Assembly (NCBI GenBank): GCA_963539665.1
Contig: CAUTOX010000002.1
Span: 787 to 64,786 of the forward strand
From: an uncultured Treponema sp.
GTDB taxonomy: Bacteria > Spirochaetota > Spirochaetia > Treponematales > Treponemataceae
Reading direction: 5' to 3'
DNA length: 64,000 nucleotides
The notes below the pieces were generated by a model. That model saw only the letters and a program-made list of their open reading frames with translations. It ran no database searches and was not told the origin of the DNA. The translations under genes and the position numbers were made by a program. Each line of letters opens with the position of its first letter. The first letter of the stretch is position 1. This document shows positions 42,665 through 62,626 of this stretch, piece after piece.

Positions 42665-44905
42665 TTAGCGCGTTCGTATTTCTTGCCATCCCAGCACCCG
42701 CTGCTTCATTCCGGCGATATCCAGCACCCCTAAGGCAAATCCTTTGCGTACCAGCTCAGAGGGAACATACTCGTCGTATTTGTCAAAGACGGGGACTTCG
42801 TTTTCGTACACAAGCTCCAGCGGGTCAAAGTTTTGTGCGGCTTCTTCGGCAATAATGCGATAGAATTCCTGTGCGCTTACCTGCATGGTAAACTGTAGGT
42901 AGTACGGTCTGGACGGACTCAAGCCTTTGAGCCCAAGCCGTGCACCGCAGCGGAGCTTGAGAAAGCGTTCCAACGCAAGAAAGGCATAGCTGCCCAGCTG
43001 AGGAAAGAGCGCCCACATAGAGCCGCCGAGGGAAATGAGCGGGTGAGTGTCCATCCCTGCCTTGCTGAACGTATTCCGCGCTTCCTGCAAACGGCACACG
43101 GCATGGCGCATCAGGTACGGATAGCTTTTCTGTTCGGCAAGAACAGTATGCATCCGTTCCAAGATACAGGTGTGTATATCGCCTGCCACATCACCGAAAT
43201 ACGCAGGGATATTCCCCTTTACCAGCGTACAGTATACCTCGCGGCGCTGGTGATCCACCTCGTCCACTGCCCACACCCTGCCTGCAATAGCTATCTTCTC
43301 GCCCGCAGGCGGCGGTTTGACGATTGTTCCCAGCTCTTCGGAACCGGAACGCACCGTGTATTCGATATTTTCTTGGAACACTGCGTAAAACTTATAATTG
43401 TTGACAACCCGCTCCCCGGTAATCCCGACAATCAGCCCGCCGTTTTCCGTGCGGTTGATATGATCAATAGTGATAAGGTGCCGGAGCAAGGTACGGAAGT
43501 CCTCCTGACTGATGCGGCGGAATACCGAAAGGGTCAGTACTCTGGAGGCCAGCTCCGCCGGTGTCATCTCACCTGAGGAGGCAAGCGTACTCATGGTCTG
43601 GTGATAGAGCAGGGAGAAGGGCAGCTTTTCCGTGCGCGGCGGTTCCACAAAGCGCTCTTCGATATAAAGCTGAACAAGTGCAATTCCTTGAATAAGATAC
43701 CACGGAATCATCTCCGGCAGCATCGCCCGCGCTTCGGGATGATCTTCCCGCATAACAAACCACATTTCCGAAGGAGTGCCGCGCCGTCCGGTACGTCCCA
43801 TACGCTGTAAAAAACCGGAAACGGTAAAGGGTGCATCAATCTGGAATGCCCGCTCCAGTCTCCCGATATCAATCCCCAGTTCCAGTGTAGCGGTAGCGCA
43901 CACACTGATAAGCGAGTCGTCATTCTTCATCTCCTCTTCCGCACTTTCGCGGTACGAAGCGGAAAGGTTGCCGTGGTGAATTAAAAAGCGGTCGGGTTCG
44001 TGATTAGCTTCACAGTATTGCCGGAGGTGCTGGCATACGGATTCGCACTCCTCGCGGGAATTGGTAAACACGAGGCATTTTTTACCGCGGGTATGCTCAA
44101 AGATATAGCCCATCCCCGGGTCTGCGGCCTTGGGGGCAGTATCCGTCGCGGGTTCTACCGTAAGCGCTTCGATGGTAATAGGCTTACCTTCGTCAGCTTG
44201 CGGCTCCGTATTGAAGAAGTGTTCCATCGAAAGCCGCCACACCTCTTTGCCGCCGTCGCATTTGGGGATAACCGTTTCTCTCCCGCTGCCTGCAGCAAGA
44301 AAGGCTCCCGCTTCTTCGGGATCGCCGAGTGTGGCGGAAAGACCAACCCGCCGGGGATTGCAGCCCGCCGTCCGGCAGAGCCGCTCAATTAAGCAAAAGG
44401 TTTGCCCGCCGCGGTCGGCACGCAGCAGGAAGTGGACTTCATCAATGACGACAAAGCGTAGGTCATGGAACAAAGAGGGTATTTCGCTCTGCTTGGTGAT
44501 CATCAGCGCTTCAAGGGATTCCGGGGTGATCTGCAAAATCCCCGCCGGTTTACGGAGCAGCTTCCGTTTTTGGCTTTGCGGCGCATCGCCATGCCATCGC
44601 GTTACGGCGATTCCTGCTTCCTCGCACAGCTCGTTCAGCCTCCCGAACTGATCATTGATGAGCGCCTTGAGCGGAGCGATATACAACACTCCCACCGAGG
44701 CAGACGGCTCTTCGTACAAGAGGCTCAGGATTGGAAAAAACGCCGCTTCGGTTTTGCCGGAGGCGGTGGATGCCGTCAGCAGCACATTGTTATCGGTATT
44801 GAAAAGAGCATCGCCCGCCGCATTCTGCACCGCGCGAAGCGTCTGCCAACCGGAGCGGTAAATATAATCCTGTATAAAAGGGGCGTATTGATTAAAAATG
44901 TCCAT
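42665..44905 (-). CDS. DEAD/DEAH-box SF2 helicase (Lhr-like; SngC-like component of a Shango-type system)
   Basis: Motif I ASTASGKTEAAF, motif II VVIDEVHFL, motif III GLSATLG, motif VI QRMGRTGRRG. There is a long C-terminal extension. Confidence 0.8.
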   Translation of the reverse strand: MDIFNQYAPFIQDYIYRSGWQTLRAVQNAAGDALFNTDNNVLLTASTASGKTEAAFFPILSLLYEEPSASVGVLYIAPLKALINDQFGRLNELCEEAGIAVTRWHGDAPQSQKRKLLRKPAGILQITPESLEALMITKQSEIPSLFHDLRFVVIDEVHFLLRADRGGQTFCLIERLCRTAGCNPRRVGLSATLGDPEEAGAFLAAGSGRETVIPKCDGGKEVWRLSMEHFFNTEPQADEGKPITIEALTVEPATDTAPKAADPGMGYIFEHTRGKKCLVFTNSREECESVCQHLRQYCEANHEPDRFLIHHGNLSASYRESAEEEMKNDDSLISVCATATLELGIDIGRLERAFQIDAPFTVSGFLQRMGRTGRRGTPSEMWFVMREDHPEARAMLPEMIPWYLIQGIALVQLYIEERFVEPPRTEKLPFSLLYHQTMSTLASSGEMTPAELASRVLTLSVFRRISQEDFRTLLRHLITIDHINRTENGGLIVGITGERVVNNYKFYAVFQENIEYTVRSGSEELGTIVKPPPAGEKIAIAGRVWAVDEVDHQRREVYCTLVKGNIPAYFGDVAGDIHTCILERMHTVLAEQKSYPYLMRHAVCRLQEARNTFSKAGMDTHPLISLGGSMWALFPQLGSYAFLALERFLKLRCGARLGLKGLSPSRPYYLQFTMQVSAQEFYRIIAEEAAQNFDPLELVYENEVPVFDKYDEYVPSELVRKGFALGVLDIAGMKQRVLGWQEIRTR

Positions 44906-45075
44906 CGTGTTTTCTCTGTTGAGCAGTGTACCTTCTTGTATACATTTGAATCACCGCCGTTCATGTCAGTACTGAGAATGATGTATCCAGTCAGTTCACC
45001 CGTCGGTTATTCCTCTGCATTCTTAGCGTCTTCACGGTTTATCTTTAAAGTAACCGCGGAAGTACGCGCAGGTAC

Positions 45076-45978
45076 CTATAGCGCTTCGACTTCTGCTGGA
45101 GAGATACCGGCTATTTTGCAAATATCTGTAAGGGGATAGCCCATAGAGAGCATCATTTTTGCCGTTTCGAGGGCTTTTTGACGAGAGCCTTGAGATATTC
45201 CTTGGGATATTCCTTGGGATATTCCTTGAGATATTCCTTGAGCAAAAGCTATTCTGCCTGCTTCTTCTCTCTGTACCGCAATATCGGTATCGTAGTCATA
45301 TTCGGCTACCAACATATTGATTACCTCCCGTGATTTTCGTTGTAGGTATTCTTTTAAGATTCCTTTTTCTATACATATCTTTACTGCATTGGTAAAGCCG
45401 TTTGCGCTGTCGAGTTGGGTTTGTTTTCTTACCTCTTCTACAAACAGGCTGTATTCTTCAAGCGGCTTGCAGGCTGCTAAGACTTTGTTCGCCTTATCTG
45501 TATTGATGTTCAAAACCTGTACAGTCAACTCCAGCGGGGCATGCTCGGGTTTTGTCATAAATGCATCTGAAAGCTTTAGAGTCGCGGTTTCAGGGTAATC
45601 TTCCAGCCCATTGTAAAATACATAGAACTCCGGAGCTGGTATCTTTGATAACTTTCTTAGATATCTGTCTGTTGGTGCTTGTAACTTTTCATAGATCCTT
45701 GCGATGTATTCCAAAAAGCGTAGGGGCATATTCTCGTTTACCGTAGACTGATGCTCCGCAAGAACGATGATTTTATTGTCCACAAGGCAAGACACATCGT
45801 TGATAATGTTCATGTACATGACATTATCAAGGCGTATGTTTTCTACCGGGCATGAAAGCTGTAAATTAGTATTATGCAAGGCATTATAGAGTGATAAAAA
45901 GTTCTCTTTAGCTTTTTCATCCTCACTGAATAGATCAACGAACACTGAATCTTTATATTTCCTGTTTGCCGTACCCAT
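45076..45978 (-). CDS. Rpn-family recombination-promoting nuclease / putative transposase (PD-(D/E)XK)
   Basis: 300 aa. YKDSVFVDLFSEDEKAKENFLSLYNAL...IIVLAEHQSTVNENMPLRFLEY. Paralog of 190..1068. Confidence 0.8.
   Translation of the reverse strand: MGTANRKYKDSVFVDLFSEDEKAKENFLSLYNALHNTNLQLSCPVENIRLDNVMYMNIINDVSCLVDNKIIVLAEHQSTVNENMPLRFLEYIARIYEKLQAPTDRYLRKLSKIPAPEFYVFYNGLEDYPETATLKLSDAFMTKPEHAPLELTVQVLNINTDKANKVLAACKPLEEYSLFVEEVRKQTQLDSANGFTNAVKICIEKGILKEYLQRKSREVINMLVAEYDYDTDIAVQREEAGRIAFAQGISQGISQGISQGISQGSRQKALETAKMMLSMGYPLTDICKIAGISPAEVEAL
45188..45243. repeat. 12-bp in-frame tandem repeat, about 4.6 copies, encoding (GISQ)4 in the Rpn C-terminal region
   Basis: CCTTGAGATATT / CCTTGGGATATT units run consecutively at 45188-45235, followed by a partial unit. 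Confidence 0.9.
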
Positions 45979-46222
45979 AACTGTTCATCCTATTCCGGCA
46001 AGGATACCGGTCGGTCAAAACTCACCCCGAACCATATGCAAGGATGCACAAGGTTTGTTATAGCATAGACCGCCAGATTTTTAAAGATACATAGAAGACT
46101 TAACCGCCAAAGCACAAAGTACGCTGTTAATTGGTTGTACGTCACTGTATGCAGGAAAAACTATGTAAAAACTCGCTGCTGCGCATTCCTTCGGCCATCC
46201 ATCACTCTTCTGCGCACTCACC

Positions 46223-47554
46223 TTAAATCGTAAACTCGGCATAGTTTTCATCGGTGGTGTCCGATACCGCATCAGACTTTGCGTACGAAAATGTATCGGA
46301 GTTTAGTAGCTCGATAATGCTCATTCCCGGATTTTGGTACAAAATATCCAGCAGCTCGATAAAATCCCGGATTACTTCGCGCGGGGTGATATGCACATCG
46401 GCGCCGATCCGCTCATATTCAATTCTGATAAACGCCGCCAAGTCGTCCGTGGTGATTTTCTGCTCATAGCCGTAGAGACCTGCGTGCATCGCAGCGAGCT
46501 TTTCACAGAGGATCAACATTTCTTCCGCAGTAATCGGGTCAAGCCGGATTACCGGCGCAAGTAAGTCCCGTGCACCGGGCTTGGAAAACTTCCCCTCTGC
46601 AAGACGGGAGCGGAGCGCCTCGTAGCTGTACACACCGCGCCGCTTATCCTCTATCGCCTGCGGTGTCGCCCCCATGATAATACCGAGGTATTTTGCCTTT
46701 CCTTGTAAGGTGTCGTTGTACATGGTGAGGAGTTTTTCGTAATTGTACTGGCGCGTGATGGAGTTGGGAACTTTATAAATATTGACGAGTTCGTCGATCA
46801 TAATCATCATGCCGGAATAACCCGCCAGCCGGAAAAATGTTGCAAAGAGCTTGAGATACTCGTACCAGTCATCATCCGTAATAATGATATTAACACCGAG
46901 TTCTTCCTTTGCTTCGCGCTTGAGGGCATATTCGCCCCGGAACCACCGCACTACTTTTGCTTTCGTTTCATCATCGCTCTTGAGGTACGCATGATAATAG
47001 GCTGAAAGTAATTGAGCAAACTCAAAACCGTGTACCAGCTCGCTCACCGAAGCGGTTACCGCGTAAATCTTTTGATCGACAAGCGCAGTCAATGCCGGAT
47101 CTCCGGGTTGAAGCCCGCTTTCTTGCAAGGCTTCACTTTGCACGGTGCTGATCCACCGCTCCAATATCAGCGTGAGTGCACCGCCCTCCGGTTTTGTCTT
47201 TGTGGAAAGATTCCCGATCAACTCGCGATAAGTTGCAAGCCCCTGTCCCCGCGTTCCTTGCAGCCTCCGTTCCGGCGACAGGTCTGCATCCGCAACAATG
47301 AACCCGCGATCCATCACATAATTCCGGATAGTTTGCAGTAAAAAACTCTTTCCCGCTCCATACCGCCCGACAATAAAGCGGAACGAAGCGCCGCCTTCGG
47401 AGATAATATCAACATCATGCAGCAAGGCTTGAATTTCATTTTTCCTACCGACGGTGATATACGGCAGCCCGATACGGGGCACTACACCGCCTTTTAAAGA
47501 ATGCAATACCGTCTGCGCAATCCGCTTTGGAACTTTTCTTTCCGCTTCGTTCAT
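46223..47554 (-). CDS. DUF2791/BrxD-like ATP-binding protein (SngB-like)
   Basis: 443 aa. The N-terminus LKGGVVPRIGLPYITVGRKNEI, then Walker A VGRYGAGKSFLL and Walker B MMIMIDELV, match the DUF2791 'BREX system ATP-binding' architecture. Confidence 0.75.
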   Translation of the reverse strand: MNEAERKVPKRIAQTVLHSLKGGVVPRIGLPYITVGRKNEIQALLHDVDIISEGGASFRFIVGRYGAGKSFLLQTIRNYVMDRGFIVADADLSPERRLQGTRGQGLATYRELIGNLSTKTKPEGGALTLILERWISTVQSEALQESGLQPGDPALTALVDQKIYAVTASVSELVHGFEFAQLLSAYYHAYLKSDDETKAKVVRWFRGEYALKREAKEELGVNIIITDDDWYEYLKLFATFFRLAGYSGMMIMIDELVNIYKVPNSITRQYNYEKLLTMYNDTLQGKAKYLGIIMGATPQAIEDKRRGVYSYEALRSRLAEGKFSKPGARDLLAPVIRLDPITAEEMLILCEKLAAMHAGLYGYEQKITTDDLAAFIRIEYERIGADVHITPREVIRDFIELLDILYQNPGMSIIELLNSDTFSYAKSDAVSDTTDENYAEFTI

Positions 47555-47805
47555 GTTATTTTATCTCCCACTATCCAGGACAACCGCATACGAATATTTT
47601 AAGCAGTTGTCTTCATTTTGTGCGAAATTTTTGAGAAAATTTCGCACAGGTTATTTTAAAAGCATAGAGCAATCGCATCAGAAGTGTAGATCGAATTCCG
47701 CAAAATAATAGGTTGGGCAACCATTTGAGATGCAACGCATCGAAATTCTGGTTGAACGGCCTATTATTTTGCGGGGGATTTACAATAGCCTCTGATGCGA
47801 TTGCC

Positions 47806-49923
47806 CTATCCCAATATCCCGATAATATCATCACGATAATCTTCCACAAGGGTAATTGTTTTACCGTCGCATTCTACCACCGTATCGCCGATAAGATCAA
47901 ACAATGCCTCGTTGATAGCATCGGCGATAACGCTCGGCATTCCATGCTGTGCTGCAATCAATTCCTGCACCGGCTCTCCGCGGAGCAGCATTTGCATCAA
48001 CTGGGTCTGCATACTATCCAATGGAAGAGCTTGTGCCCCCTTCATCGCTTGTTGGTATTCCCCGTGATTGTCGAGCAGATTTGTCTGACTCTGCGTTGTC
48101 GCCTTTTCTGCTGCGCCCGTATCATCTTGAGCGATAGGTGGTGGACTTTCTTTTTGTTTTACAGAAATAACCGCACGGTCTACCGCTCCAAGCTTCTCTT
48201 CTTCTGTCAAAAGACTGGACTGCGTTTTGAGCGCATCCTGTCGGATTTTATTCAGACCGGAAAAGTCAATCGTAATCTTCTGCCGCGCGGCTTCGATTTT
48301 GGCTTTTCGATCCGCTTCAATAACAGCTTCAATGTAGGGGACTGCCCATGCCGCTTCTTTCCGCTCTTTTAATGGATGTTTCGTTTTTAGATAGAGGCGT
48401 AAGCGCCGGTCGGTTTCATGGAGAAGATCGACGAGCCGCTGTTTTTGAAAAGAAGACTTCTGATATGACCGTATATACCATTCTTTATTCTTAAAAATAT
48501 ACGAGCGGCAGGAAGTCAATTCATACGTAAAGGATTTTTTTATTTCCTTGTTATGAAAAAATACACCGCTCAGAGGATACCATGGTGTGGAACTCCGAAT
48601 ACCGAAGCACAGCCTAAAAAGAGTTTGTCCATTTTCACGGTACTGTGCCGTAACGAGGCGAAATACTGCGGCAAAGAGTTTGACTGCTTCCGCGCCATAC
48701 AGCTGTATCACCGTTGATTCGGCGGTTTTCTTTTTGCCGAACTTACAAAGCGCCTTAAACACTTCGGCATCGCTGTATTTTTTAGGATGGCGCAAAATTT
48801 CAATCTCTGCATCTTCTTCCAACAATTCTTGATCAATATAAAGGCGCGCTGTTGTCGGCTCGATATTGTTCACTACGGCAAACTCCAGCGCCCATTCATG
48901 CAGTCTTTTTTGCAGAGTTTGACCGCCAAGTCCGGCATCGATATAGGCTCTTTCAAATTCTTGTATTTTTCTCAGACTGTCTTCCGCAGAGACCGCTCCG
49001 ATTCCATTCAACAGCTCTAACAGATAAATAAAAACAAAAGCTTCGCAGTGTTTTTGAAAATTCCCTTTCCGCAGTTCTGTCCGCCACGTAAAATATCCGC
49101 GCAGCTGCTTTATGGATAAATCATGATAGGTCATAAAACCATAGCTATATAGGTCTCCATACCAAGGGACATTATCTTCATAGTCCTCCATGAACTTCCC
49201 CTGTATATAGAAGTTTTTGTATCTCAATTCAAAAGAAAGAAGGAACCTCTCTTGGTAAAGAGCCTGCATCTTGCGTATTTGCTCAGGAACCGCCTGTTTC
49301 TTTTTTTGAACTTTTGCTTTTTTCTCTGTTTTTGAATTTGCATCTCCTATCTGCTGTTGCTTCTGATTTTTACCATATAAAGGCGTTTCCTTGTATTGCG
49401 TCTTCTCATGAATATCCGCATGGAGGACTAGCGTGCATCCTTTTTGTTCATCGAATGCCTCGCCCCCGCCCGGTGCCGTTTGAACTGCTGCTCCTGAAAT
49501 TACCGGTTCAGGCAATGCTTGAGCAGAAAACTTTGAGTGCGCTTCATCGCGTGTATTTGAGGGCTGATCAGTATTGTTCGTATTATGGGAAGGATGATTT
49601 TCTGCATAAAAAAGCACTGCTGCCATGTGTTTGCAATTATTACCACTTGTCGCATGAGGGCACGAGCAGTCCATATTGGAAACGCCGCCATCGGAAAGGG
49701 ATATGCTGACAGTGTAGATTTCAGAGCCCGCTACGTTTGCACGGATTTTTTGCTCGTTCCTCTCGAATGAAGCAACACAGCCGTGCTTGTAATAGTTCAA
49801 TCCGCGATTTAGTATTTTATCAGCAAATAAAGCGTTCCAATCCATAAGCCGGTATGCTAACACAACATGACTTCTTGTCAATATACGACAAAACCGATTG
49901 GAAAAATACCATATTAGAGCCAT
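47806..49923 (-). CDS. SWIM zinc-finger + TerB-N + TerB-C domain protein (SngA-like)
   Basis: SWIM CxCxnCxH motif: MDCSCPHATSGNNCKHMAAVLF. A low-complexity linker follows. TerB-N-like block: HDLSIKQLRGYFTWRTELRKGNF...FVFIYLLELLNGIG. TerB-C-like tail: LDSMQTQLMQMLL...IADAINEALFDLIGDTVVE. The more likely start is MDWNALF at 49845. Confidence 0.7.
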   Translation of the reverse strand: MALIWYFSNRFCRILTRSHVVLAYRLMDWNALFADKILNRGLNYYKHGCVASFERNEQKIRANVAGSEIYTVSISLSDGGVSNMDCSCPHATSGNNCKHMAAVLFYAENHPSHNTNNTDQPSNTRDEAHSKFSAQALPEPVISGAAVQTAPGGGEAFDEQKGCTLVLHADIHEKTQYKETPLYGKNQKQQQIGDANSKTEKKAKVQKKKQAVPEQIRKMQALYQERFLLSFELRYKNFYIQGKFMEDYEDNVPWYGDLYSYGFMTYHDLSIKQLRGYFTWRTELRKGNFQKHCEAFVFIYLLELLNGIGAVSAEDSLRKIQEFERAYIDAGLGGQTLQKRLHEWALEFAVVNNIEPTTARLYIDQELLEEDAEIEILRHPKKYSDAEVFKALCKFGKKKTAESTVIQLYGAEAVKLFAAVFRLVTAQYRENGQTLFRLCFGIRSSTPWYPLSGVFFHNKEIKKSFTYELTSCRSYIFKNKEWYIRSYQKSSFQKQRLVDLLHETDRRLRLYLKTKHPLKERKEAAWAVPYIEAVIEADRKAKIEAARQKITIDFSGLNKIRQDALKTQSSLLTEEEKLGAVDRAVISVKQKESPPPIAQDDTGAAEKATTQSQTNLLDNHGEYQQAMKGAQALPLDSMQTQLMQMLLRGEPVQELIAAQHGMPSVIADAINEALFDLIGDTVVECDGKTITLVEDYRDDIIGILG

Positions 49924-49943: not shown

Positions 49944-52450
49944 AGGATTTAATTTTGCAGTCCGCCGTCCTCCGGTGTGTTTGTGTAAACCTGCGAGGGG
50001 GAAATGCGTTGGGGCGGGCGGGATGAATTTTCCGGCGGAGTTAATTTTGCAGTCTGCCTACATCCGGCGTGTTTGGCGCAAACTGGCGAGAGAGGAATAC
50101 GTTGGGGCGGGCGGATGGATTTTTTCAGACGGATTTAGCTTTACCATCCGCTTGCCTCCGGCGTGTTTGGCGCAAAACGGCGAAAGGGGATGCGCTGAGG
50201 CTGGTGGGATGGATTTTTCTGACGGATTTAATTTTACCGTCCGCTTGCATCCGGTTTATTTGGCGCAAACCGACAAGAGGGAATGCGTTGGTGCGGGTGA
50301 GATGGATTTTTCCAGCGGAGTTAATTTTACCGTCTGCCTGCATCCGGCGTGTTTGTGCCAACCGGCGAGGGAGAAATGCGTTGATGCGGGATGGATGGAT
50401 TTTCCGGCAGAGTTAGTTTTACTGGCTGCCTGCATCCGGTTTGTTTGGCGTAAACCGGCAAGAGGGAATGCGTTGGGGCGGGCAGGATGAATTTTTCCGG
50501 CGGAGTTAATTTTATCGTCCGCCGGCCTCCGGTGTGTTTGGCGCAAACCAGCGAGAGAGGAATGCATTGGGGCTGCCGGGATGGATTTTCCGGCGGAGTT
50601 AATTTTACTGGCTGCCTGCATCCGGCGTGTTTGTGCAAACCGGTGAGAGAGGGAAATGCGTTGGGGCAGGCGGATGGATTTTTTCCAGCGGATTTAATTT
50701 TATCGTCCGTCTGCATCCAGCATGTTTGGCGCAAAACGGTGAGAGGGGAATGTGTTGGAGTGGGCAGAGGGATTTTTTCCAGCGGATTTAGTTTTACCGT
50801 CCGCCTGCATCCGATTTGTTTGGCGCAAACTGGCGAGAAGGGAATGCGTTGGTGTGAGCGGATGGATTTTTTCAGATGGAGTTAATTTTACCGTCCGCCT
50901 GCATCCGGTGTGTTTGCAACCGGCGAGAGAGGAGTGCGTTGGTGCTGACGGGATGGATTTTTCCAGCGGAGTTAATTTTATCGTCCGCCTGCCTCCGGTG
51001 TGTTTGTGCAAACCGGCAAGAGGGAATGCGTTGGGGCGGGCAGGATAGATTTTTTCAGATGGATTTAATTTTACCGGCCGTCTGCATCCGGCGTGTTTGT
51101 GCAAACCGGTGAGAGGGGAATGCGTTGGGGCGGGATGGATGGATTTTCTGGCGGAGTTAGTTTTATCGTCTGCCTGCATCCGGCGTGATTGGCGTAAACC
51201 GGAGAGAGAGGAATGCATTGGGCGGGCGGATAGATTTTTTCAGATGGACTTAATTTTACCGTCCGTCTGCATCCGGCGTGTTTGTGCAAACCTGCGAGAG
51301 GGAATACGTTGGGGCGGGCGGATGGATTTTTCAGATGGATTTAATTTTATCGTCCGCCGGCCTCCGGCGGAGTTAGTTTTACTGGCTGCCTGCATCCGGT
51401 GTGTTTGTGCCAACCGGCGAGGGAGAAATGCGTTGGTGCTAGCGGGATGGATTTTCCGGCGGAGTTACTTTTATCGTCCGCCTGACACCGGTTTGCGTAT
51501 GCAAAACGGTGAGAGGGAATGCGTTGGTGTGGGCGGAGGGATTTTTTCCAGCGGATTTAATTTTACCGTCCGCTTGCATCCGGCGTGTTTGGTGCAAAAC
51601 GGTGAGAGGAGGATGTGTTGGTGCGGGCGGGATGGATTTTCCGATGGATTTAATTTTACCGTCCGCCTGCATCCGATTTGTTTGGCGCAAAAAGGCGAGA
51701 GGGAAATACGTTGGGGCTGACGGGATGGATTTTCCGGAGGATTTAGTTTTACCGTCCGCCTGCATCCGATTTGCGTGTGCAAACCGGCGAGAGGGGAATG
51801 TGCGGGTGCTGGCGGGCTGGATTTTTCCGGCGGAGTTAGTTTTACTGCCTGCCTCCGGCGTATTTGGCGCAAACCGGCGAGAGGGGAATGCGTTGGTGCG
51901 GGCGAGATGGATTTTTCTGACGGATTTAATTTTACCGTCCGCTTGCATCCGGCGTGTTTGGCGCAAAACCGGAGAGAGAGTACCGCGCTGGTGCTGGCGG
52001 GATGGATTTTTCCGGCGGAGTTACTTTTGCAGTCCGCCGTCCGCCGGCGTGATTGGCGTAAACCGGAGAGAAAGGAATGCATTGGGCGGGCGGATAGATT
52101 TTTTCAGATGGATTTAATTTTACCGTCCGTCTGCATCCGGCGTGTTTGTGCAAACCGGTGAGAGAGGGAAATGCGTTGGGGCGGGATGGATGGATTTTTC
52201 GGATGGATTTAATTTTACCGTCCGCCTGACTTCGGTTTGCGTGTGCAAACCAGTGAGGGGAGTGCGTTGGTACGGGCGGGATGGATTTTTCCGGCGGAGT
52301 TAATTTTACTGGCTGCCTGCATCCGGCGTGTTTGTGCAAATCGGAGAGAGAGGAATGCGTTGGGGCGGATGGATTTTTTTCAGATGGATTTAATTTTACC
52401 GTCCGCCTGCATCCTATGTGCTTGTGCAACCGGCGAGAGGGAAACGACGC
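49944..52450. repeat. Array of about 27 degenerate tandem units of about 93 bp (hairpin-repeat family, minus orientation relative to the other clusters)
   Basis: Units start near 49947, 50040, 50133, 50226 and so on. Each contains TTAATTTTACCGTCCGCCTGCATCCGGCGTGTTTGTGCAAACCGG..GGGAATGCGTTGGGGCGGGCGGATGGATTTTT. Open reading frames appear in most frames on both strands. Confidence 0.9.
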
Positions 52451-52552
52451 TTGAAGACCGGACTCTAGTCGAGAACTCTTAAAAAAGGCTGCTGCCGCAA
52501 AACACTAAAAGCGGCAGCCGAACAAAACAGGCGCTCCTGCTGTTGGAAGAAC

Positions 52553-52695
52553 TTCTCTTCAGCATAATGAAGGGATGTCCTTCACGGTAATGAAGAACAC
52601 TCCTTCAGCATAATGAAGGGACGGCCTTCACGGTAATGAAGAACACTCCTTCTGCATAATGCAGGACAGCTCTGCACTATGCTGAAGGCAGAGGT
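52553..52695. repeat. Tandem 46-bp repeat made of two 23-bp half-units, about 3 copies, giving six phased CCTTCA-n6-TGAAG palindromes
   Basis: CCTTCAGCATAATGAAGGGATGT and CCTTCACGGTAATGAAGAACACT alternate. The offset between equivalent positions (52563, 52609, 52655) is 46. Confidence 0.8.
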
Positions 52696-56216: not shown

Positions 56217-59210
56217 ATGAACGCTGCATTTGAAAATAACAGAGCGCAACTTTCACAGTTGACGGAATTATTTGAAAGGAATAAAAAGCAGTACAATACA
56301 TCGGCTTATGATGAAGCAAATACCCGTACCGATTTTATTGACAAGTTTTTTGAACTTTTAGGTTGGGATATAAGGAATGAACAAGGTTATTCTGAACAAT
56401 ATCGGGAAGTTGTGCGTGAAGACAAGGTAACGATAGCCGGAAGGGTGAAGGCTCCCGATTATGCCTTCAGAATAGGCAGGGTGAGGAAGTTTTTTGTAGA
56501 AGCGAAAAAGCCGAGCGTGAACATTAAAGATGACCTTGAGCCGGCGTTTCAGGTAAGGCGGTATGGGTACACGGCAAAACTCCCTTTGTGTATACTTACC
56601 GATTTTGAAGAATTTGCCGTGTACGACACCCGTATAAAACCTTCGCCTTCCGATAAACCAAGTACAGCCCGTATCTTTTACTGTACCTTCGATGAGTATC
56701 ATAAAAATTTCGATTTTATTTTTAACACTTTTTCAAAAGAAGCGATTTTAAAGGGCAGTTTCGATACCTATATTCAGGAGAACAAAAATAAAAAAGGCAC
56801 TTCCGAGGTCGACAAAGAATTACTAAAACTGATTGAAAGCTGGCGGACGGATATTGCAAAAAATATCGCACTGCGTAATCCTTCGCTCAATATTTATCAT
56901 CTAAACACTGCCGTACAAAAAATTATCGACCGCATCATTTTCTTGCGAATTGCGGAGGATAAAGAAATGGAAGAGTACGGACTTTTGCAAAAGATAACCG
57001 AAAGCGGCACAGTGTATCAAAAGCTGCAAGCTGTTTTTGACAGAGCTAATGCAAAGTACAATTCGGGACTTTTTAAACCGCATGACTGGCTCCGCAGTTT
57101 GACTATTGATGATGCGGTTCTTTCTTCTATTATAACAAGGCTTTATTACCCCGAATGTCCGTACGAGTTTTCTATTTTACCGGTGGAAATACTCGGCAAT
57201 ATTTATGAACAGTTTTTGGGAAAGATCATAAAATTCCGCAATATCGGAGGTCGACGTTTTGACGGGAGTCAAAACTCGGAGGTTTCGTCCGATAGGACGA
57301 ACACCCGACACACTGCGCTGATCGAAGAAAAGCCAGAGGTAAAAAAAGCCGGCGGTGTGTACTACACCCCACAATATATCGTCCGCTACATTGTAGAAAA
57401 TACCCTCGGCGTAAAAATAAAGGGGCAAAGCCCTGACGCTATTGCTCAGCTTAAAGTGGTTGATCCCGCCTGCGGTTCAGGCTCCTTTCTTGTTGAAGCG
57501 TATCAGCAGCTCTTGAATTATCATTTGGACTATTATTCAAGCGAAAAGGAGCAGAAGCTGGCTCTGAAAAAAAGCCGTATTTATGAATCAGGGCAAAATG
57601 TTTATAAACTCACTATTGAAGAAAAGCAGCGTATTTTGCTGAATAATATTTACGGAGTGGATATAGACGGTCAAGCTGTGGAAGTTACCAAGCTTTCGCT
57701 CTACTTAAAGCTGTTGGAAAATGAAGGGAGCGAAACGCAAGGGCAGTTATTTAAGTTTTCGGACATGAAGCTTTTACCCTCGCTCGATTCGAATATTAAA
57801 TGCGGCAATAGTCTTGTCGGTTCCGACTATTATAACGAAAAAGACGTAAGCCTTTTTGACGATGAAGTAATGCGGAAAATCAATACCTTTGACTGGGACA
57901 AGGAATTTCCGGAAGTCTTTGCTCAAGGCGGTTTTGACTGTGTGATTGGGAATCCGCCGTATGTGAACATCAGTGTATTTCCTGAACTGCACACATATTT
58001 GCAAATAACATATCCTATAATACACACAGGTTATAACGATTTGATGTATTATTTTATGTATCGCGGTATTGAGTTCTTAAAAGAAGATGGATTGTACGGT
58101 ATTATTACTTCAAATTATTTTTTGGGAAATGAATATGCGAAAAAATTACGAGTCTTTTTATCCGACAAGATTACCAAAATTTTAAATTTTAAAAATGCAA
58201 AAATATTTAGCGCAAATGTACATACTGCATTAGTATTTGCAGAAAAACATACAACAAATGACATCGATATTTTTACATATTCAAGCGATAAAGCTCCTGA
58301 TTCCGTAATTATAGAAAATGATTACTCATATATCACGATGAAAAGGAATACACTCAGTGAAGTATGGATTCTTGCCGATAGCAAAAAACAGCATGTTATT
58401 GACAAAATGAAAACAGATTCAATATATCTTGGTGATATAATGATTATCGAAAAAGGATCATCATCAGGTAAAAATGATATTTTTACAGTACCGCTTTCCG
58501 TTGCGGAAGAAGGTGCTTTTGAAAAAGACCTTATACGAAAAAATATAAAAAACGGCGATATTCATAGATACCGTTTAGAAAATAGGAAAACCGTTCTGAT
58601 TTATACAGATAACAAAACCGACATAAAAAAGTATCCGAATATTTATAAATATCTTTCAGCACATAAAAAAGAACTCAGCAACAGAAATGAGGTTTCAAAA
58701 GGAGCCTATGCATGGTATCGATTAGAGCGCCCTCGTGATAAAAATATTTTTGATGCAAAAGAAAAATTGATTGTCCCATATCGGGCAACACAGAATCGCT
58801 TTGCATATGATAATCAACAGTATTTCAATGACGGCGGTGATATCCGTGCATTAGTAATGAAAGAAAATATGCCTTTTAATATTAAATATCTACTGGTATT
58901 ACTCAACTCAAAACTACACAACTGGTATTTTGGCTTTATCGGTAAATCAAAAGGAAATACGCGGGAATATTTTAATAAACCTCTTGCAGAAATTCCCATA
59001 AAAACTATTTCACCGGAGGATCAAGCCCCGCTTATCACTCTTGCAGACCAGATGCTTGAAACGCAACGCAGATTGCAGCAAGCCCTATCCGATGAGGATA
59101 AAAAACTCTTGGAACAACGAGCGGCAATTATTGATAAGCAGATAGATAAGGCGGTATACCAGCTATACGGCTTAACGGAAGAAGAAGTGAAGATTGTGGA
59201 GGGGGAGTAA
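56217..59210 (+). CDS. Type IIG restriction enzyme / N6-adenine DNA methyltransferase (single chain: N-terminal PD-ExK nuclease, Eco57I-type gamma-class MTase, C-terminal specificity region)
   Basis: HsdR_N-like nuclease motif APDYAF...FFVEAKKP. Helical linker ILGNIYEQFLGK. AdoMet motif VVDPACGSGSFLVEAY. Catalytic motif VIGNPPYV. 997 aa. Confidence 0.85.
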   Translation: MNAAFENNRAQLSQLTELFERNKKQYNTSAYDEANTRTDFIDKFFELLGWDIRNEQGYSEQYREVVREDKVTIAGRVKAPDYAFRIGRVRKFFVEAKKPSVNIKDDLEPAFQVRRYGYTAKLPLCILTDFEEFAVYDTRIKPSPSDKPSTARIFYCTFDEYHKNFDFIFNTFSKEAILKGSFDTYIQENKNKKGTSEVDKELLKLIESWRTDIAKNIALRNPSLNIYHLNTAVQKIIDRIIFLRIAEDKEMEEYGLLQKITESGTVYQKLQAVFDRANAKYNSGLFKPHDWLRSLTIDDAVLSSIITRLYYPECPYEFSILPVEILGNIYEQFLGKIIKFRNIGGRRFDGSQNSEVSSDRTNTRHTALIEEKPEVKKAGGVYYTPQYIVRYIVENTLGVKIKGQSPDAIAQLKVVDPACGSGSFLVEAYQQLLNYHLDYYSSEKEQKLALKKSRIYESGQNVYKLTIEEKQRILLNNIYGVDIDGQAVEVTKLSLYLKLLENEGSETQGQLFKFSDMKLLPSLDSNIKCGNSLVGSDYYNEKDVSLFDDEVMRKINTFDWDKEFPEVFAQGGFDCVIGNPPYVNISVFPELHTYLQITYPIIHTGYNDLMYYFMYRGIEFLKEDGLYGIITSNYFLGNEYAKKLRVFLSDKITKILNFKNAKIFSANVHTALVFAEKHTTNDIDIFTYSSDKAPDSVIIENDYSYITMKRNTLSEVWILADSKKQHVIDKMKTDSIYLGDIMIIEKGSSSGKNDIFTVPLSVAEEGAFEKDLIRKNIKNGDIHRYRLENRKTVLIYTDNKTDIKKYPNIYKYLSAHKKELSNRNEVSKGAYAWYRLERPRDKNIFDAKEKLIVPYRATQNRFAYDNQQYFNDGGDIRALVMKENMPFNIKYLLVLLNSKLHNWYFGFIGKSKGNTREYFNKPLAEIPIKTISPEDQAPLITLADQMLETQRRLQQALSDEDKKLLEQRAAIIDKQIDKAVYQLYGLTEEEVKIVEGE
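57250..57305. repeat. Double-hairpin module inside the RM coding sequence (candidate in-frame repeat-element insertion)
   Basis: GTTTTGAC-GGGA-GTCAAAAC (57256-57275) and TTCGTCC-GATA-GGACGAA (57284-57301). The layout is the same as GTTTTGCC-GTA-GGCAAAA ... GGACG-GTA-CGTCC in the intergenic repeats. Confidence 0.55.
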
Positions 59211-59360
59211 TAATATTATGAGATATGATTATATGAATACAAAAAAACGATAACGGAAGATTTTAAACTATTAACAGCTCGTAATATAATAGATATTCTT
59301 GATGGTGATACAAAATTTGGTACATTTACATTTGAGAATGGCAAATATTTTGCAATTGCT

Positions 59361-60209
59361 ATGCCGTATTTAACAGGTCCAATGTTGTGTAGTATTTCAA
59401 CTCAATTCGGTCTTGCGGTTAGATACAATTTTGATACAACCAATGATAAAAAACAAAATAAAAGCAGATGGACATATCTAACTGATTTATTTGAATATTC
59501 TATTATGACCGGTTCTTGTTCAAATTTGCTATCATATCTTTTCGCACGAAAAAATTTTACAAATGAAACTTTTAAACAAAATATGAAAGATGATTCTTAT
59601 GGGTATCAAAATTATCAAGAGTTAGACGATAACGAAACTAATTATGCATACAAAATAATTATTGAACGAGTTATTAAAGAAATAAATGAATTATTAAAAT
59701 TTAGTCAAAAAGAACTCGCTATTGTATCAGATAATATTATTATAAAACCTATTACTGATGATATTAAAATTGAAACACCAAAAATAAAAAATATGGATGA
59801 TAAATATATTCAAAGTAAAGCTAACCAAGCTAAAGTTCATATCGAACAAGGTCAGTACGATACAGCCCTTACTCAAGCCCGCACAATATTGGAAGAAGTA
59901 TTTTGTTATGTCCTTGAAAGGAAAAATATAGAACCTATAGCAGCAGGAAAAATTGGAGAACTTTATAAACAAGTACGAGAAGTTTATAATATGCATATAG
60001 ATGATAATACTGATAAAAGAATAAAAAAATTATTATCGGGACTTAACACGATTGTTGATGCTATAGCGGAAATGCGAAATCAAATTAGCGATGCTCATGG
60101 ACAGGGTTCAAAAAGAAAAAGCATAAGAGATTATCATGCCCGACTCGCTGTTAATTCGGCTATTACGGCAGCAGAGTTTATTTTATCGGTATATGAACAT
60201 GCTACATAG
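59361..60209 (+). CDS. Abi_C-domain (abortive infection C-terminus) protein; the reading frame may begin at 59218 through a -1 shift at an A7 tract
   Basis: The C-terminus LSGLNTIVDAIAEMRNQISDAHGQGS...YHARLAVNSAITAAEFIL matches the Abi_C signature (RN..sdaHG). AT-rich. The in-frame open stretch extends upstream to 59229 without an ATG. Confidence 0.65.
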   Translation: MPYLTGPMLCSISTQFGLAVRYNFDTTNDKKQNKSRWTYLTDLFEYSIMTGSCSNLLSYLFARKNFTNETFKQNMKDDSYGYQNYQELDDNETNYAYKIIIERVIKEINELLKFSQKELAIVSDNIIIKPITDDIKIETPKIKNMDDKYIQSKANQAKVHIEQGQYDTALTQARTILEEVFCYVLERKNIEPIAAGKIGELYKQVREVYNMHIDDNTDKRIKKLLSGLNTIVDAIAEMRNQISDAHGQGSKRKSIRDYHARLAVNSAITAAEFILSVYEHAT

Positions 60210-60222
60210 CATAAAACTGTAA

Positions 60223-60350
60223 CAAGCCCTATCCGATGAGGATAAAAAGCTCTTGGAACAACGGACGACAATTATTGATAAGCAGATAGATAAGGCGGTA
60301 TATAAATTGTATAATTTAGCGGAAGAAGAAGTAAAGATTGTGGAGGGGGA
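60223..60350. repeat. Diverged direct copy (offset 1144 bp) of the last 128 bp of the RM gene (59079-59206)
   Basis: CAAGCCCTATCCGATGAGGATAAAAA.CTCTTGGAACAACG...ATTATTGATAAGCAGATAGATAAGGCGGTATA...GAAGAAGAAGT.AAGATTGTGGAGGGGGA is present at both sites. The second copy would encode ...QALSDEDKKLLEQRTTIIDKQIDKAVYKLYNLAEEEVKIVEGENDY*. Confidence 0.85.
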
Positions 60351-60352
60351 AA

Positions 60353-62626
60353 ATGATTACTGAAATTACGATGAAAAATATCGCGACTTATAATAATATT
60401 GGTGTTAAACTTGAGGGATTAAAACGGCTCAATTATTTTTTTGGAAACAATGGTTCCGGAAAATCTACAATCGCAAAATATTTGCAATCGCTTGTAATAG
60501 GTGATCCGGAAAATAAATATTCATCATGTTCAAAAGAAAATTATAACCCTATGCAGGAAGAAATTCTTGTGTTTAACCAAGATTTTGTCGAGAGAAATTT
60601 TAGGCAAAGCCAAGTCCTAAAAGGTGTTTTCTCATTAAATCAAAAGAATGCTGAAATTGATAAACAAATAAAACTAAACGAAGAAAGTATTTCAAACAAA
60701 CGTAGAACAAAGAATGACATGGAAGAAGAGAATAACATACTTGATCAGCAAAACAATCAACTTAAAACAGAATTAACAAAAAAATGTTTTAATAAAAGAA
60801 ATGTTTTTAAATCTTTTTCAAAAATGAGACTTGATCATTCAAAGAATATGAAAAATAATTTAGAACAAGTTGAAAAAATCATTCAGAATAATAGTATTGT
60901 AAAACCAGACTTTAGTACCCTAAATGATTTATATAAAAAGCTTTATGAAGATGATTTAAGCAGTATTGATGTTTTACTTGATATACAATTATTTGATGAG
61001 TTATTGCAAAAACATAATGAACTATCAGTATTGTTGCAAGAAATTATTATAGGTAAAGAAGATGTACAATTAGCAAAATTGATAAATGAATTTGGTTTAA
61101 AGTCTTGGGTTGCGCAAGGTAAAACATTTCTTGAGAAAACAAAGACTGTTTGTCCGTTTTGTCAAAAAGAAACGATAGACAATGATTTTATTTCGCAATT
61201 AAATGATATTTTTGACGAATCGTCAAAACAAAAGATAGACAAAATAAAAAGTGAAAAAATCATTTATGAGAATACATTCAAAAGGGTTTTGCAAAATATT
61301 CAAGCCGTATATGAAAAATACAATGTGAAAAACATTGTTTCAAATCTACAAATGAGCTTAAAAACCATTTATGATATTAACTTAAAAATAATAAGTGATA
61401 AAATCAATGCACCGAATGAAAAGAAAGCACTTGATGATATAACAGAATCATTTAAAAATATACTATTACAAATTAATAAGGAAATAGAAAATAATAATAC
61501 TCTTGTCAACTCTCTTGATACTCAAAAAGAGTCTTTAGAAAAACAAATATGGGATTACATTGCTCTTGACTGCAAAGATGATATTCTAAAATATCAAGAA
61601 GAGACTAAATCAACTACTGAAATTATTAATAAAAATAAAACTGGAATTGCGAGACTACTAGCGGAAATACAACAATTAGAACAAGAAAATGCTACACTAA
61701 GAGATAAAACTGTTAATACTACAGAAGCCGTTTATAATATAAATAAAATTTTGGAAAACTCCGGCTTTATGGGTTTTAAAATTTGTGAACAAACTAAAGA
61801 AAATAACATCTCCCAATATTATTTATCAAGAAATTCGAAAACACGTGAAGGTAATATATTTAATAGTTTGAGTGAAGGAGAGAGCAATTTTATTGCATTC
61901 TTATATTTCTACCAACTTTGTTTAGGTACTACGGATATTCAAGAAGGTTCTGAAAAAAAGAAAATAATTGTTATCGACGACCCTGTTTCAAGTATGGATA
62001 GCCAAGTATTATTTATCGTTTCAACATTAGTAAACAGGTTAATAACATATAAAGGCAGGAGCGGAGGAGAAAAAAAGGAGTTTCTAAATGGAAACATTGA
62101 ACAAGTTTTCATATTAACTCATAATTATTACTTCTATAAAGAAGTTGCAATGCAAAAACGACCTATATGTAAATCCCAACAGCATTATCTAATCGAAAAG
62201 AATGCGATTAATGAGTCATACATAAAATTGCGTGAATATAAAGAATACGATGACTATGCATTAATGTGGCAAACAATAAAAGAAGCAAAAGAAAAATTAT
62301 CTGATGACAATAAAGAACAAAATATTCTCCTGGCGAATTTATTTAGACGTATTTTAGAAAGCTATGCTAACTTTATAGGGCTTGGTACGGATTCTTGGGC
62401 AACTATTCTGGCGGATAATGACAAAGATAGTATGGAACATCATTTGAAAACTGCTTTTATTTCAATGATCAATGATGAAAGTCACAAAGTTTCGCCATTT
62501 GATAATTTTTATTTTCAAAAGATTCATAATGCTAATCCATCAAAGTTGTTTGAAGTATTTGAATCAATCTTCAATACTATTGGTAAAGAGCATTACGATA
62601 GGATGATGGAACCCAATAAATTATAA
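60353..62626 (+). CDS. AAA_13-family ATPase with coiled-coil CxxC hook and a PrrC/RloC-like C-terminal region (candidate anticodon nuclease)
   Basis: Walker A FFGNNGSGKSTI. Long coiled-coil segment with VCPFCQ. Walker B/D-loop IIVIDDPVSSMD. H-loop ILTHNYYF. C-terminal LFRRILESY...(37 aa)...NDESH resembles the PrrC/RloC Arg-Glu-His arrangement. The start is taken at the ATG at 60353. Confidence 0.7.
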   Translation: MITEITMKNIATYNNIGVKLEGLKRLNYFFGNNGSGKSTIAKYLQSLVIGDPENKYSSCSKENYNPMQEEILVFNQDFVERNFRQSQVLKGVFSLNQKNAEIDKQIKLNEESISNKRRTKNDMEEENNILDQQNNQLKTELTKKCFNKRNVFKSFSKMRLDHSKNMKNNLEQVEKIIQNNSIVKPDFSTLNDLYKKLYEDDLSSIDVLLDIQLFDELLQKHNELSVLLQEIIIGKEDVQLAKLINEFGLKSWVAQGKTFLEKTKTVCPFCQKETIDNDFISQLNDIFDESSKQKIDKIKSEKIIYENTFKRVLQNIQAVYEKYNVKNIVSNLQMSLKTIYDINLKIISDKINAPNEKKALDDITESFKNILLQINKEIENNNTLVNSLDTQKESLEKQIWDYIALDCKDDILKYQEETKSTTEIINKNKTGIARLLAEIQQLEQENATLRDKTVNTTEAVYNINKILENSGFMGFKICEQTKENNISQYYLSRNSKTREGNIFNSLSEGESNFIAFLYFYQLCLGTTDIQEGSEKKKIIVIDDPVSSMDSQVLFIVSTLVNRLITYKGRSGGEKKEFLNGNIEQVFILTHNYYFYKEVAMQKRPICKSQQHYLIEKNAINESYIKLREYKEYDDYALMWQTIKEAKEKLSDDNKEQNILLANLFRRILESYANFIGLGTDSWATILADNDKDSMEHHLKTAFISMINDESHKVSPFDNFYFQKIHNANPSKLFEVFESIFNTIGKEHYDRMMEPNKL

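Follow-up and report, generated by a model that had tools for sequence, protein, structure and literature searches.

A Shango operon of an uncultured Treponema with a SWIM-headed SngA and an Rpn gene nested between sngB and sngC

Why would the SngA subunit of a Shango system carry a SWIM zinc finger at its N-terminus, and does a fourth gene lying among the three Shango genes belong to the system? Both questions are raised by an operon of four open reading frames (ORFs), all on the minus strand and within 7.2 kb (positions 42665–49923), in a 64,000-nt stretch of DNA from an uncultured Treponema sp. (contig CAUTOX010000002.1); this whole stretch is called the window below, and all coordinates of its features refer to it. 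Anti-phage activity of Shango has been demonstrated in P. aeruginosa and E. coli (Johnson et al. 2023, PMC10250203; Millman et al. 2022 preprint), and the literature calls SngA a 'TerB-domain' protein. We analyzed the window together with a set of 81 related loci that contain SngA, individual loci being named by L-numbers. By its profile matches, the window locus is an intact three-gene Shango (sngA-sngB-sngC), unusual by the SWIM-headed SngA and by the Rpn insertion. While Shango itself is a known system, the modularity of the SngA head, the donor of this head, the swap of the sngA allele and the reclassification of the fourth gene are what the present analysis adds.

The Shango trio and its SWIM-headed SngA

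The window locus is assigned to Shango because all three PADLOC Shango profiles were matched and the catalytic motifs have been kept, which is more than a likeness by chance. SngA matched the PADLOC SngA model (2.6e-66) with aa 177–704 of its 705-aa form, covering profile positions 54–527 of 528, while SngB (5.4e-190) covered 439 of 439 and SngC (1.9e-280) positions 5–715 of 720 of their respective models. In Pfam terms, SngB is a BrxC_BrxD/DUF2791 protein (PF10923, E 6.8e-168) with intact Walker A (GRYGAGKS) and Walker B (MIMIDE) motifs; SngC combines DEAD (4.4e-30) and Helicase_C (9.6e-19) domains, with helicase motifs I (ASGKT), II (DEVH), III (SAT) and VI (QRMGRTGRRG) all intact. An initial annotation, made from the letters of the window, had described a minus-strand trio at 42665–49923, with TerB-N-like and TerB-C-like blocks in 47806..49923, a DUF2791 ATPase at 46223..47554 and a superfamily 2 (SF2) helicase whose motifs I, II, III and VI are intact, and had read this as a Shango variant; the ORFs were found at these positions, the Pfam matches (those of SngA are given in Table 1) and the four helicase motifs agree with the description, and all three components match the PADLOC Shango models. 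It had also looked to adjacency of the trio in relatives, and here sngA, sngB and sngC lie side by side, in the order seen in the window, in 67 of the 81 related loci, with a sngB–sngC gap of less than 200 nt in 59 of these 67. When proteins are clustered at 90% identity, the window SngB and SngC group with T. vincentii and Treponema sp. OMZ 805/838.

As to the label of the SngA core, TerB_N was present in 78 of 78 SngA relatives (Pfam), and TerB proper (PF05099) was reported neither for the window SngA (Pfam, E ≤ 0.01) nor for any of the 78 relatives (Pfam, E ≤ 0.001; the families reported were TerB_N, TerB_C, SWIM and YjbR). The term 'TerB protein' would here denote TerB_N plus TerB_C, and the PADLOC SngA hidden Markov model, which is matched, serves as the operational definition. 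In the AlphaFold2 (AF2) core model, the part from TerB_N to TerB_C is mainly helical and has pLDDT scores (predicted local distance difference test) that are mostly >85. A weak likeness of SngA to LysR-type DNA-binding domains, seen as a recurring Foldseek match of ~75 residues, was not relied on, and PDB sequence searches with SngA and SngB gave nothing useful.

The SWIM head is a real, maintained domain under purifying selection, and neither an annotation artefact nor a decaying relic, because its zinc ligands are invariant, its fold is confidently predicted, selection on it is purifying and its ORF is unbroken in three assemblies. The initial annotation had placed a SWIM zinc finger on the TerB protein, and the Pfam family SWIM (PF04434) was indeed matched at aa 70–107 of the 705-aa form, above the cut-off (E 2e-6; 27.6 bits vs. 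19.6). The zinc motif CxCx8CxH reads CSCPHATSGNNCKH, and its ligands C60, C62, C71 and H73 (679-aa numbering, see below) are invariant in 52 aligned homologues. In the AF2 head model, which was obtained from a head-specific alignment (an earlier whole-protein alignment had only two sequences over the head), residues 1–88 have a pLDDT >90 and fold into a helix, four strands, the CxCx8CxH zinc knuckle and a final helix; among PDB structures, it is matched best by the ZSWIM8 SWIM region (9rwz; Foldseek probability 1.00, root-mean-square deviation (rmsd) 1.9 Å). Between the window and the near-identical locus L001, the head differs by 11 synonymous vs. 5 non-synonymous changes (pN/pS 0.12, the ratio of non-synonymous to synonymous differences per site), and a sliding comparison of the same two genes gave ratios of non-synonymous to synonymous substitution rates (dN/dS) of 0.05–0.14 for the head vs. 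1 or more for the linkers. The SWIM-SngA fusion ORF is unbroken in the window, L001 and L083, which come from three independent assemblies.

Two details of the protein had to be revised. The initial annotation had given the TerB protein a length of 705 aa, which holds for the longest ORF; the true start is most likely M27 (ATG at 49845), resulting in a protein of 679 aa, because every SWIM-head homologue has its first residue aligned with M27, because L083 is without a Met where M1 of the window protein sits, because nucleotide homology to a gene in L082 (see below) ends 39 nt upstream of the M27 ATG, and because a promoter-like site falls within the extra 26 codons. This site ends 8 nt before the M27 ATG, and from the predicted promoter position a leaderless or very short-leader sngA transcript would be expected. 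Likewise, the linker of ~200 aa described originally does not hold, as the disordered stretch from SWIM to TerB_N comprises ~90 aa and is interrupted by a conserved segment. In this segment, what was the final strand of the ancestral YjbR-like head (see below) is joined by a Y-x-D/E-T-x-L-P motif, with G162 invariant in alignment A1 and L167 at least 90% conserved in 78 sequences, and the segment is present in headless, YjbR-headed and SWIM-headed SngA alike.

Table 1. Features of the operon, with their positions in the window
Feature	Position	Strand	Length or place in protein	Remarks
sngA	47806–49923 (longest ORF); 47806..49845 (from M27)	(-)	705 aa; 679 aa	TerB_N/TerB_C scaffold with N-terminal SWIM head
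Promoter-like site	49854..49881	(-)		TTGACA-16 nt-(TG)TAGCAT; consensus match only, 10/12 positions
SWIM head of SngA	49582..49845	(-)	aa 1–88 of 679-aa form	Pfam SWIM, AF2, Foldseek
Conserved segment of SngA	49369..49440	(-)		GCTLVLHAD..QYKETPLYG; low-complexity linkers on both sides
TerB_N (PF13208) of SngA	48661..49320	(-)	aa 202–421 of 705-aa form	E 1.4e-16
TerB_C (PF15615) of SngA	47824..48318	(-)	aa 536–700 of 705-aa form	E 2.9e-20
Palindromic (MITE/REP-like) element	47561..47805	(-)	245 nt	between sngA stop and sngB start
sngB	46223..47554	(-)	443 aa	DUF2791/BrxD-like P-loop ATPase
Rpn cassette	44906..46197	(-)	1292-bp insertion	absent from L002; ATGGA at both junctions
rpn (fourth gene)	45076..45978	(-)	300 aa	Rpn-family PD-(D/E)XK nuclease / 'putative transposase'
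Candidate internal start M222 of rpn	ATG 45313–45315	(-)		GGGAGG, 8 nt, ATG
(QGIS)x4 four-residue repeat	45193..45240	(-)	Rpn C-terminal domain	alignment A5
sngC	42665..44905	(-)	746 aa	Lhr/BrxHI-like DEAD/DEAH SF2 helicase

Exchange of SngA heads and sngA alleles

SngA was taken from the 81 loci and the region upstream of TerB_N was profiled for the type of head. A full YjbR-like head was found in 62 loci, no head in 15 (among them other Treponema copies and T. putidum), a region cut by the contig end in 3, and a SWIM head in 2 loci plus the window. The YjbR-like head of ~125 aa matched the profile of PDB 2kfp/3h9x (PSPTO_3016) with E 2.9e-12, and Pfam YjbR was matched in 14 of the 18 heads tested; the profile built for this head (hmmsearch) found no match in SngA of the window, of L001 or of other Treponema. 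All head forms keep a G-[FY]-T-[IV]-V-L strand together with a Y-x-D-T-x-L-P motif, and it is only around this point that the PADLOC SngA profile begins; the reference proteins of that model therefore appear to be without a large head. Judged from these alignments, the N-terminal head of SngA presents itself as a modular, exchangeable unit that has the YjbR-like form in most relatives, is missing from others and, as a rare third state, is a SWIM domain. The SWIM domain stands where most relatives carry the YjbR-like head, as expected of a swappable head and not of a one-off addition.

The initial annotation had regarded the SWIM head as atypical for Shango, in keeping with its presence in three near-identical contigs only. 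Among the best 120 of 435 SngA homologues from a collection of 5.8 billion proteins, SWIM occurred in a single cluster (P0001, 92% identical), and no SWIM-headed SngA was present in 80 loci from species-representative genomes. A metagenome scan with the head plus its junction retrieved one further near-identical copy, L083. Conversely, the SngA core was found in 0 of the 152 closest SWIM-head proteins. A chimeric SWIM+TerB_N query aimed at independent fusions returned 122 candidates, all of ≤355 aa, and missed even P0001; it carries no weight here.

Where might the head have come from? The N-terminus of SngA matched positions 17–103 of 566 of the PADLOC model PDC-S62 and, weakly, DpdE; the body of PDC-S62, a family of ~550 aa, was not matched in the window SngA beyond the head, the remainder being TerB_N/TerB_C. 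An exhaustive HMMER search for head homologues gave 3226 matches, as compared with 4 from a word-index search. The best of them are residues 1–90 of proteins of 540–590 aa that are PDC-S62-like over more of their length; head and PDC-S62-like proteins are 40–59% identical (E down to 1e-26), both starting at residue 1. The same SWIM module also heads an SNF2/DpdE-like helicase (P0226), a leucine-rich repeat protein and small stand-alone proteins. At the nucleotide level, the head and 39 nt upstream of its ATG are 71% identical between the window and a donor-type gene in L082. The head and ~40 nt of upstream DNA derive from a PDC-S62-like SWIM gene, namely its 5' end, and the simplest reading is that recombination joined this end of such a gene, promoter region included, to a Treponema sngA that had no head. 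A neighbourhood of SWIM-head and SNF2-helicase genes, expected at the outset, was rejected, since the closest relatives in 79 metagenome loci are stand-alone genes of ~550 aa with no SNF2 nearby.

Exchange seems to have affected not just the head. By identity to the window, SngB (74–98%) and SngC (75–98%) are near-invariant in loci from Clostridia, Bacteroidales, Spirochaetales, Chloroflexi and planctomycete metagenome-assembled genomes (MAGs), whereas SngA reaches 36–55% outside the near-identical L001, so that SngA is the variable component of the system. Relative to L001, from which the window diverges by a synonymous rate (dS) of about 0.13–0.17, dN/dS is 0.32 for sngA vs. 0.023 for sngB and 0.115 for sngC. 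The comparison with L002, a locus of an uncultured Treponema MAG, is revealing in this respect: over sngB, sngC and the final ~220 nt of sngA, DNA identity is 96%, whereas the remainder of sngA reaches just 69%, and dS amounts to 1.14 for sngA vs. 0.14 for both sngB and sngC. A recombination breakpoint lies inside sngA at ~48026–48197, the last ~73 codons belonging to the 96%-identical backbone shared with L002. Because of the jump in dS and the position of the breakpoint within the gene, the sngA allele has been replaced on this backbone, and has not merely evolved faster as a protein. The Shango cassette is mobile, as its surroundings are different in L002 and, on the downstream side, in L001.

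Some additional observations concern the history of the cassette. Over 49036–49395 (codons ~151–270 of the 679-aa form), sngA has no synonymous differences to L001, with a flanking dS of 0.1–0.3, which suggests recent gene conversion. SngB and SngC, with 74–89% aa identity across gut and rumen MAGs of Treponema, Clostridia, Bacteroidales, Chloroflexi and planctomycetes, are unusually conserved for defence proteins; this suggests recent cross-phylum spread plus strong constraint on the motor pair. Orphan sngA genes occur in L003 (8746–10623), followed by a DctM transporter gene, and in L053 (9272–11362), followed by a two-component system. An AAA-ATPase_like + PDDEXK_9 gene directly follows sngA in L041, and in the similar L040 the distance from sngA to the downstream sngB is 5.5 kb. 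Additional DNA separates sngB from sngC in L054 (3.2 kb) as well as in L020, L031, L032, L038 and L057 (250–420 nt), and insertions into the operon therefore recur.

The nested Rpn gene and the surrounding DNA

The initial annotation had noted a fourth gene in the operon as a feature beyond canonical Shango. The gene is present, yet it is better described as part of an inserted Rpn cassette than as a Shango component. Its match to the NCBIfam model TIGR01784 ('Rpn family recombination-promoting nuclease/putative transposase') is borderline (52.7 bits, cut-off 52.1); Pfam Transposase_31 was matched with 24.4 vs. a cut-off of 21, and PDDEXK_2 stayed below threshold. The cassette sits exactly at the start codon of sngC, and the ATGGA found at its two junctions represents the first five bases of sngC; this repetition could stem from a target-site duplication or simply from microhomology, and no terminal inverted repeats were found on the cassette. 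In L002, which is without the cassette, sngB and sngC are ~20 nt apart. The other 79 genome loci gave no Rpn homologue, and only the near-identical L001 shares the cassette. Rpn genes are known to encode nuclease toxins with an intragenically translated C-terminal antitoxin; strain-to-strain variation of a four-residue repeat is a hallmark of the family, and Rpn genes are over-represented close to defence genes (Zhong et al. 2023). Such repeat variation is seen here, with (QGIS)x4 in the window vs. x1 in L001 in proteins that are otherwise 92% identical, and M222 is a plausible internal start for a candidate 79-aa RpnS-like antitoxin. A second Rpn paralogue, 61% identical in aa sequence to the one in the operon, lies at 190–1068 (-), and a third is present as a fragment at 1–72; by these copies, the Rpn family appears to be dispersed in the genome from which the window derives.

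Could rpn nevertheless be a true fourth Shango component, providing the nuclease effector that is missing from the ATPase/helicase pair? The gene is an intact, co-directional ORF inside the operon, it has been kept in the window and in L001 with a dN/dS of 0.125, and canonical Shango has no recognisable nuclease domain. We nonetheless hold this idea to be quite improbable, as rpn is absent from L002, despite 96% DNA identity in sngB/sngC, and from all 65 other complete loci, as the cassette has sharp boundaries with the ATGGA duplication, and as the 61%-identical paralogue is located elsewhere in the window. Moreover, Rpn genes are self-contained toxin-antitoxin genes enriched near defence (Zhong et al. 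2023), and the repeat variation typical of them is observed here. Because the cassette is absent elsewhere and sngC is still under purifying selection in two insertion-bearing lineages, the fourth gene is predicted to be an independent toxin-antitoxin/defence gene nested in the operon and not a Shango subunit. Shango function would then have persisted after the Rpn insertion, in line with the dN/dS of 0.115 for sngC between the window and L001, which both carry the cassette.

The second interruption of the operon is the palindromic element between sngA and sngB, which consists of nested inverted repeats with a predicted folding energy of -97 kcal/mol. It is 98% identical in L002 and absent from L001 and L083. 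Diverged copies occur in L002 (1256–1401) and L003 (4421–4503), and the element therefore behaves like a small dispersed palindromic element of Treponema, resembling miniature inverted-repeat transposable elements (MITEs) or repetitive extragenic palindromic (REP) sequences. Two interruptions in one operon may evoke a Shango system that is decaying or transcriptionally broken, its genes uncoupled by insertions and the SWIM fusion being an accidental by-product of recombination. The predicted hairpin separating sngA from sngB, the replacement of native sequence upstream of the sngC ATG by the Rpn cassette, and the orphan sngA genes of other genomes (L003, L053) would fit such a scenario. We consider it unlikely, however, since all ORFs are full length with intact motifs, since dN/dS of sngB and sngC has remained at 0.02–0.12 since the split of the window and L001 despite the Rpn insertion, and since the SWIM head, with its 11 synonymous vs. 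5 non-synonymous differences, belongs to a fusion ORF that is unbroken in three assemblies.

The operon has hisS, coaX, a repeat array and a topoisomerase IV subunit A-like gene as neighbours. In the array (49945–52443), which lies directly upstream of the sngA promoter region, a 93-bp unit is repeated in tandem ~27 times, the copies being degenerate (~75% identity). The array has a strong G-over-C skew (+0.285) and contains no long ORF; it gave no Rfam match, and its conserved 20-mer had no exact match in viral contigs. The contigs of L001 and L083 both end inside this 93-bp repeat, which therefore accompanies this Shango cassette in three assemblies. Between the array and the topoisomerase IV subunit A-like gene, a small tandem repeat with 23/46-bp units (CTTCAGCATAATGAAG...) is located at 52546–52683. 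At a distance of 6 kb from Shango, a second defence cluster (56217–62626 (+), G+C 0.29–0.42) encodes a Type IIG restriction-methyltransferase (1.6e-199), AbiJ (1.2e-70) and PDC-S06 / AAA_13 (4.2e-180) according to PADLOC. Scanning the window for Rfam families and tRNA genes gave no matches.

SngA as a candidate sensor and comparison with known systems

We think it fairly probable that the features described above have a joint explanation, according to which an intact Shango resides on a mobile cassette, SngA is a sensor with an exchangeable head, and rpn is independent of the system. SngA would act as a sensor/adaptor subunit, its conserved C-terminal part holding the ATPase SngB together with the Lhr-like helicase SngC, a motor pair resembling BrxD/BrxHI. 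The N-terminal head, carried on the ~90-aa disordered linker, would recognise a trigger, which might be a nucleic-acid structure of the phage or one of its proteins or ribonucleoproteins (RNPs), and this recognition would allow SngB and SngC to act on invading DNA in an ATP-dependent manner. A swap of the head (YjbR-like to SWIM), or of the whole sngA allele, would change what is sensed and leave the motor untouched. The rpn gene would encode an independent nuclease toxin with an intragenic antitoxin and represent a second defence gene inside the operon. A more specific version of this proposal, which we put forward tentatively and with less than even confidence, is that the SngA head is the exchangeable specificity module of Shango, that head and allele swaps re-target a near-invariant SngB/SngC motor shared across phyla, and that the SWIM form senses a trigger different from that of the YjbR form, possibly a phage protein or RNP and not DNA.

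Several points weigh against this proposal. SWIM domains are predicted DNA binders and serve also as protein/RNP-recognition modules, as in ZSWIM8, so both classes of ligand are possible. The contacts of SngA with SngB and SngC, as well as binding by the head, are deduced from the anatomy of the proteins and are to be taken as predictions, and the SngA core is without a PDB structural analogue that would support a role (Foldseek, best E 0.44). The SWIM fusion is limited to a single narrow lineage, whose members (window, L001 and L083) share at least 92% identity, and SWIM-SngA might be of young age and of minor consequence. Expression of the operon could suffer from the -97 kcal/mol hairpin element and from the Rpn cassette, which has taken the place of the ribosome-binding region of sngC. 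Finally, no Shango mechanism was described in the literature searched, and phage protection by Shango has been demonstrated for the P. aeruginosa and E. coli systems only, and for no Treponema Shango.

One may also think of the trio as a DNA-repair or DNA-processing module of Treponema that is not primarily devoted to phage defence, with the SWIM domain targeting host DNA structures. Earlier comparative genomics of Ter-associated operons reportedly suggested DNA processing, and SngC resembles Lhr and ligase-associated DEXH helicases (NCBIfam). What speaks against it is that homologous systems protect against phage experimentally (PMC10250203; Millman et al. preprint), that the cassette is mobile, with flanks differing in L001 and L002, that it hosts an Rpn defence gene and lies near the cluster of Type IIG restriction-modification, AbiJ and PDC-S06 genes, that the family which donated the head is itself a PADLOC defence candidate, and that one subunit is fast-evolving and allele-swapping, as in conflict systems. 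Taken together, we rate such a repair function as highly improbable.

Returning to SngA as a sensor with an exchangeable head, comparison of the window locus with its relatives suggests that SngA is the subunit on which diversifying pressure acts and that its N-terminal head can be swapped as a module; if the head is indeed a specificity module, it would offer a first handle on how Shango senses infection. The locus also provides natural examples of a domain captured by one defence gene family (SngA) from another (PDC-S62-like), of an Rpn toxin/antitoxin gene nested in another defence operon without inactivating it, and of near-invariant SngB/SngC motors common to gut, rumen and oral bacteria of several phyla.

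Compared with the Shango systems of P. aeruginosa PA14 and E. coli, the window locus has the same three gene families in the same order and orientation. It differs by an SngA to which an 88-aa SWIM domain and a linker of ~90 aa are added outside the PADLOC SngA model, by the Rpn gene between sngB and sngC, by the 245-nt palindromic element between sngA and sngB, and by its spirochaete host. Within its nearest clade (Clostridia, Bacteroidales, Spirochaetales and other gut/rumen MAGs), YjbR-headed SngA is the majority form. The window SngA shares with this form the TerB_N/TerB_C core and the conserved segment, and the SngB/SngC partners are 74–89% identical to those of the window; unlike it, the window protein is without the ~125-aa head except for its last strand and carries SWIM instead. 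PDC-S62, a single-gene defence candidate in PADLOC, and the ~550-aa proteins named 'SWIM zinc finger family' are homologous to the window SngA in their first ~90 residues and 5' flank, but the window protein has the TerB_N/TerB_C core in place of their body of ~450 aa. The SWIM domain of ZSWIM8 (9rwz) shares the CxCxnCxH zinc site with the head, the rmsd given above extending over 78 columns; ZSWIM8, in contrast, is the substrate receptor of a eukaryotic cullin-RING ligase, and at 19% sequence identity no functional equivalence is implied.

Similarities to BREX concern the motor pair, with SngB matching BrxD models (E 1.4e-46) and SngC BrxHI models (E 2.2e-124). The BrxD-BrxHI pair reportedly belongs to type 2 BREX. 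Unlike in BREX, no PglX, PglZ or other core genes are adjacent in the window, SngB scores 159 against the BrxD equivalog cut-off of 350 (NCBIfam), and the partner is a TerB_N/TerB_C protein. The fourth gene, for its part, resembles the Rpn/RpnS genes (Zhong et al. 2023) in its three-helix-type tail, which matches the RpnA C-terminus, in its repeat variation, in the candidate internal Shine-Dalgarno sequence plus ATG, and in its defence setting, while it differs from them in being placed inside another defence operon and in having its repeat 25 residues after the candidate internal Met as compared with the 8–20 reported.

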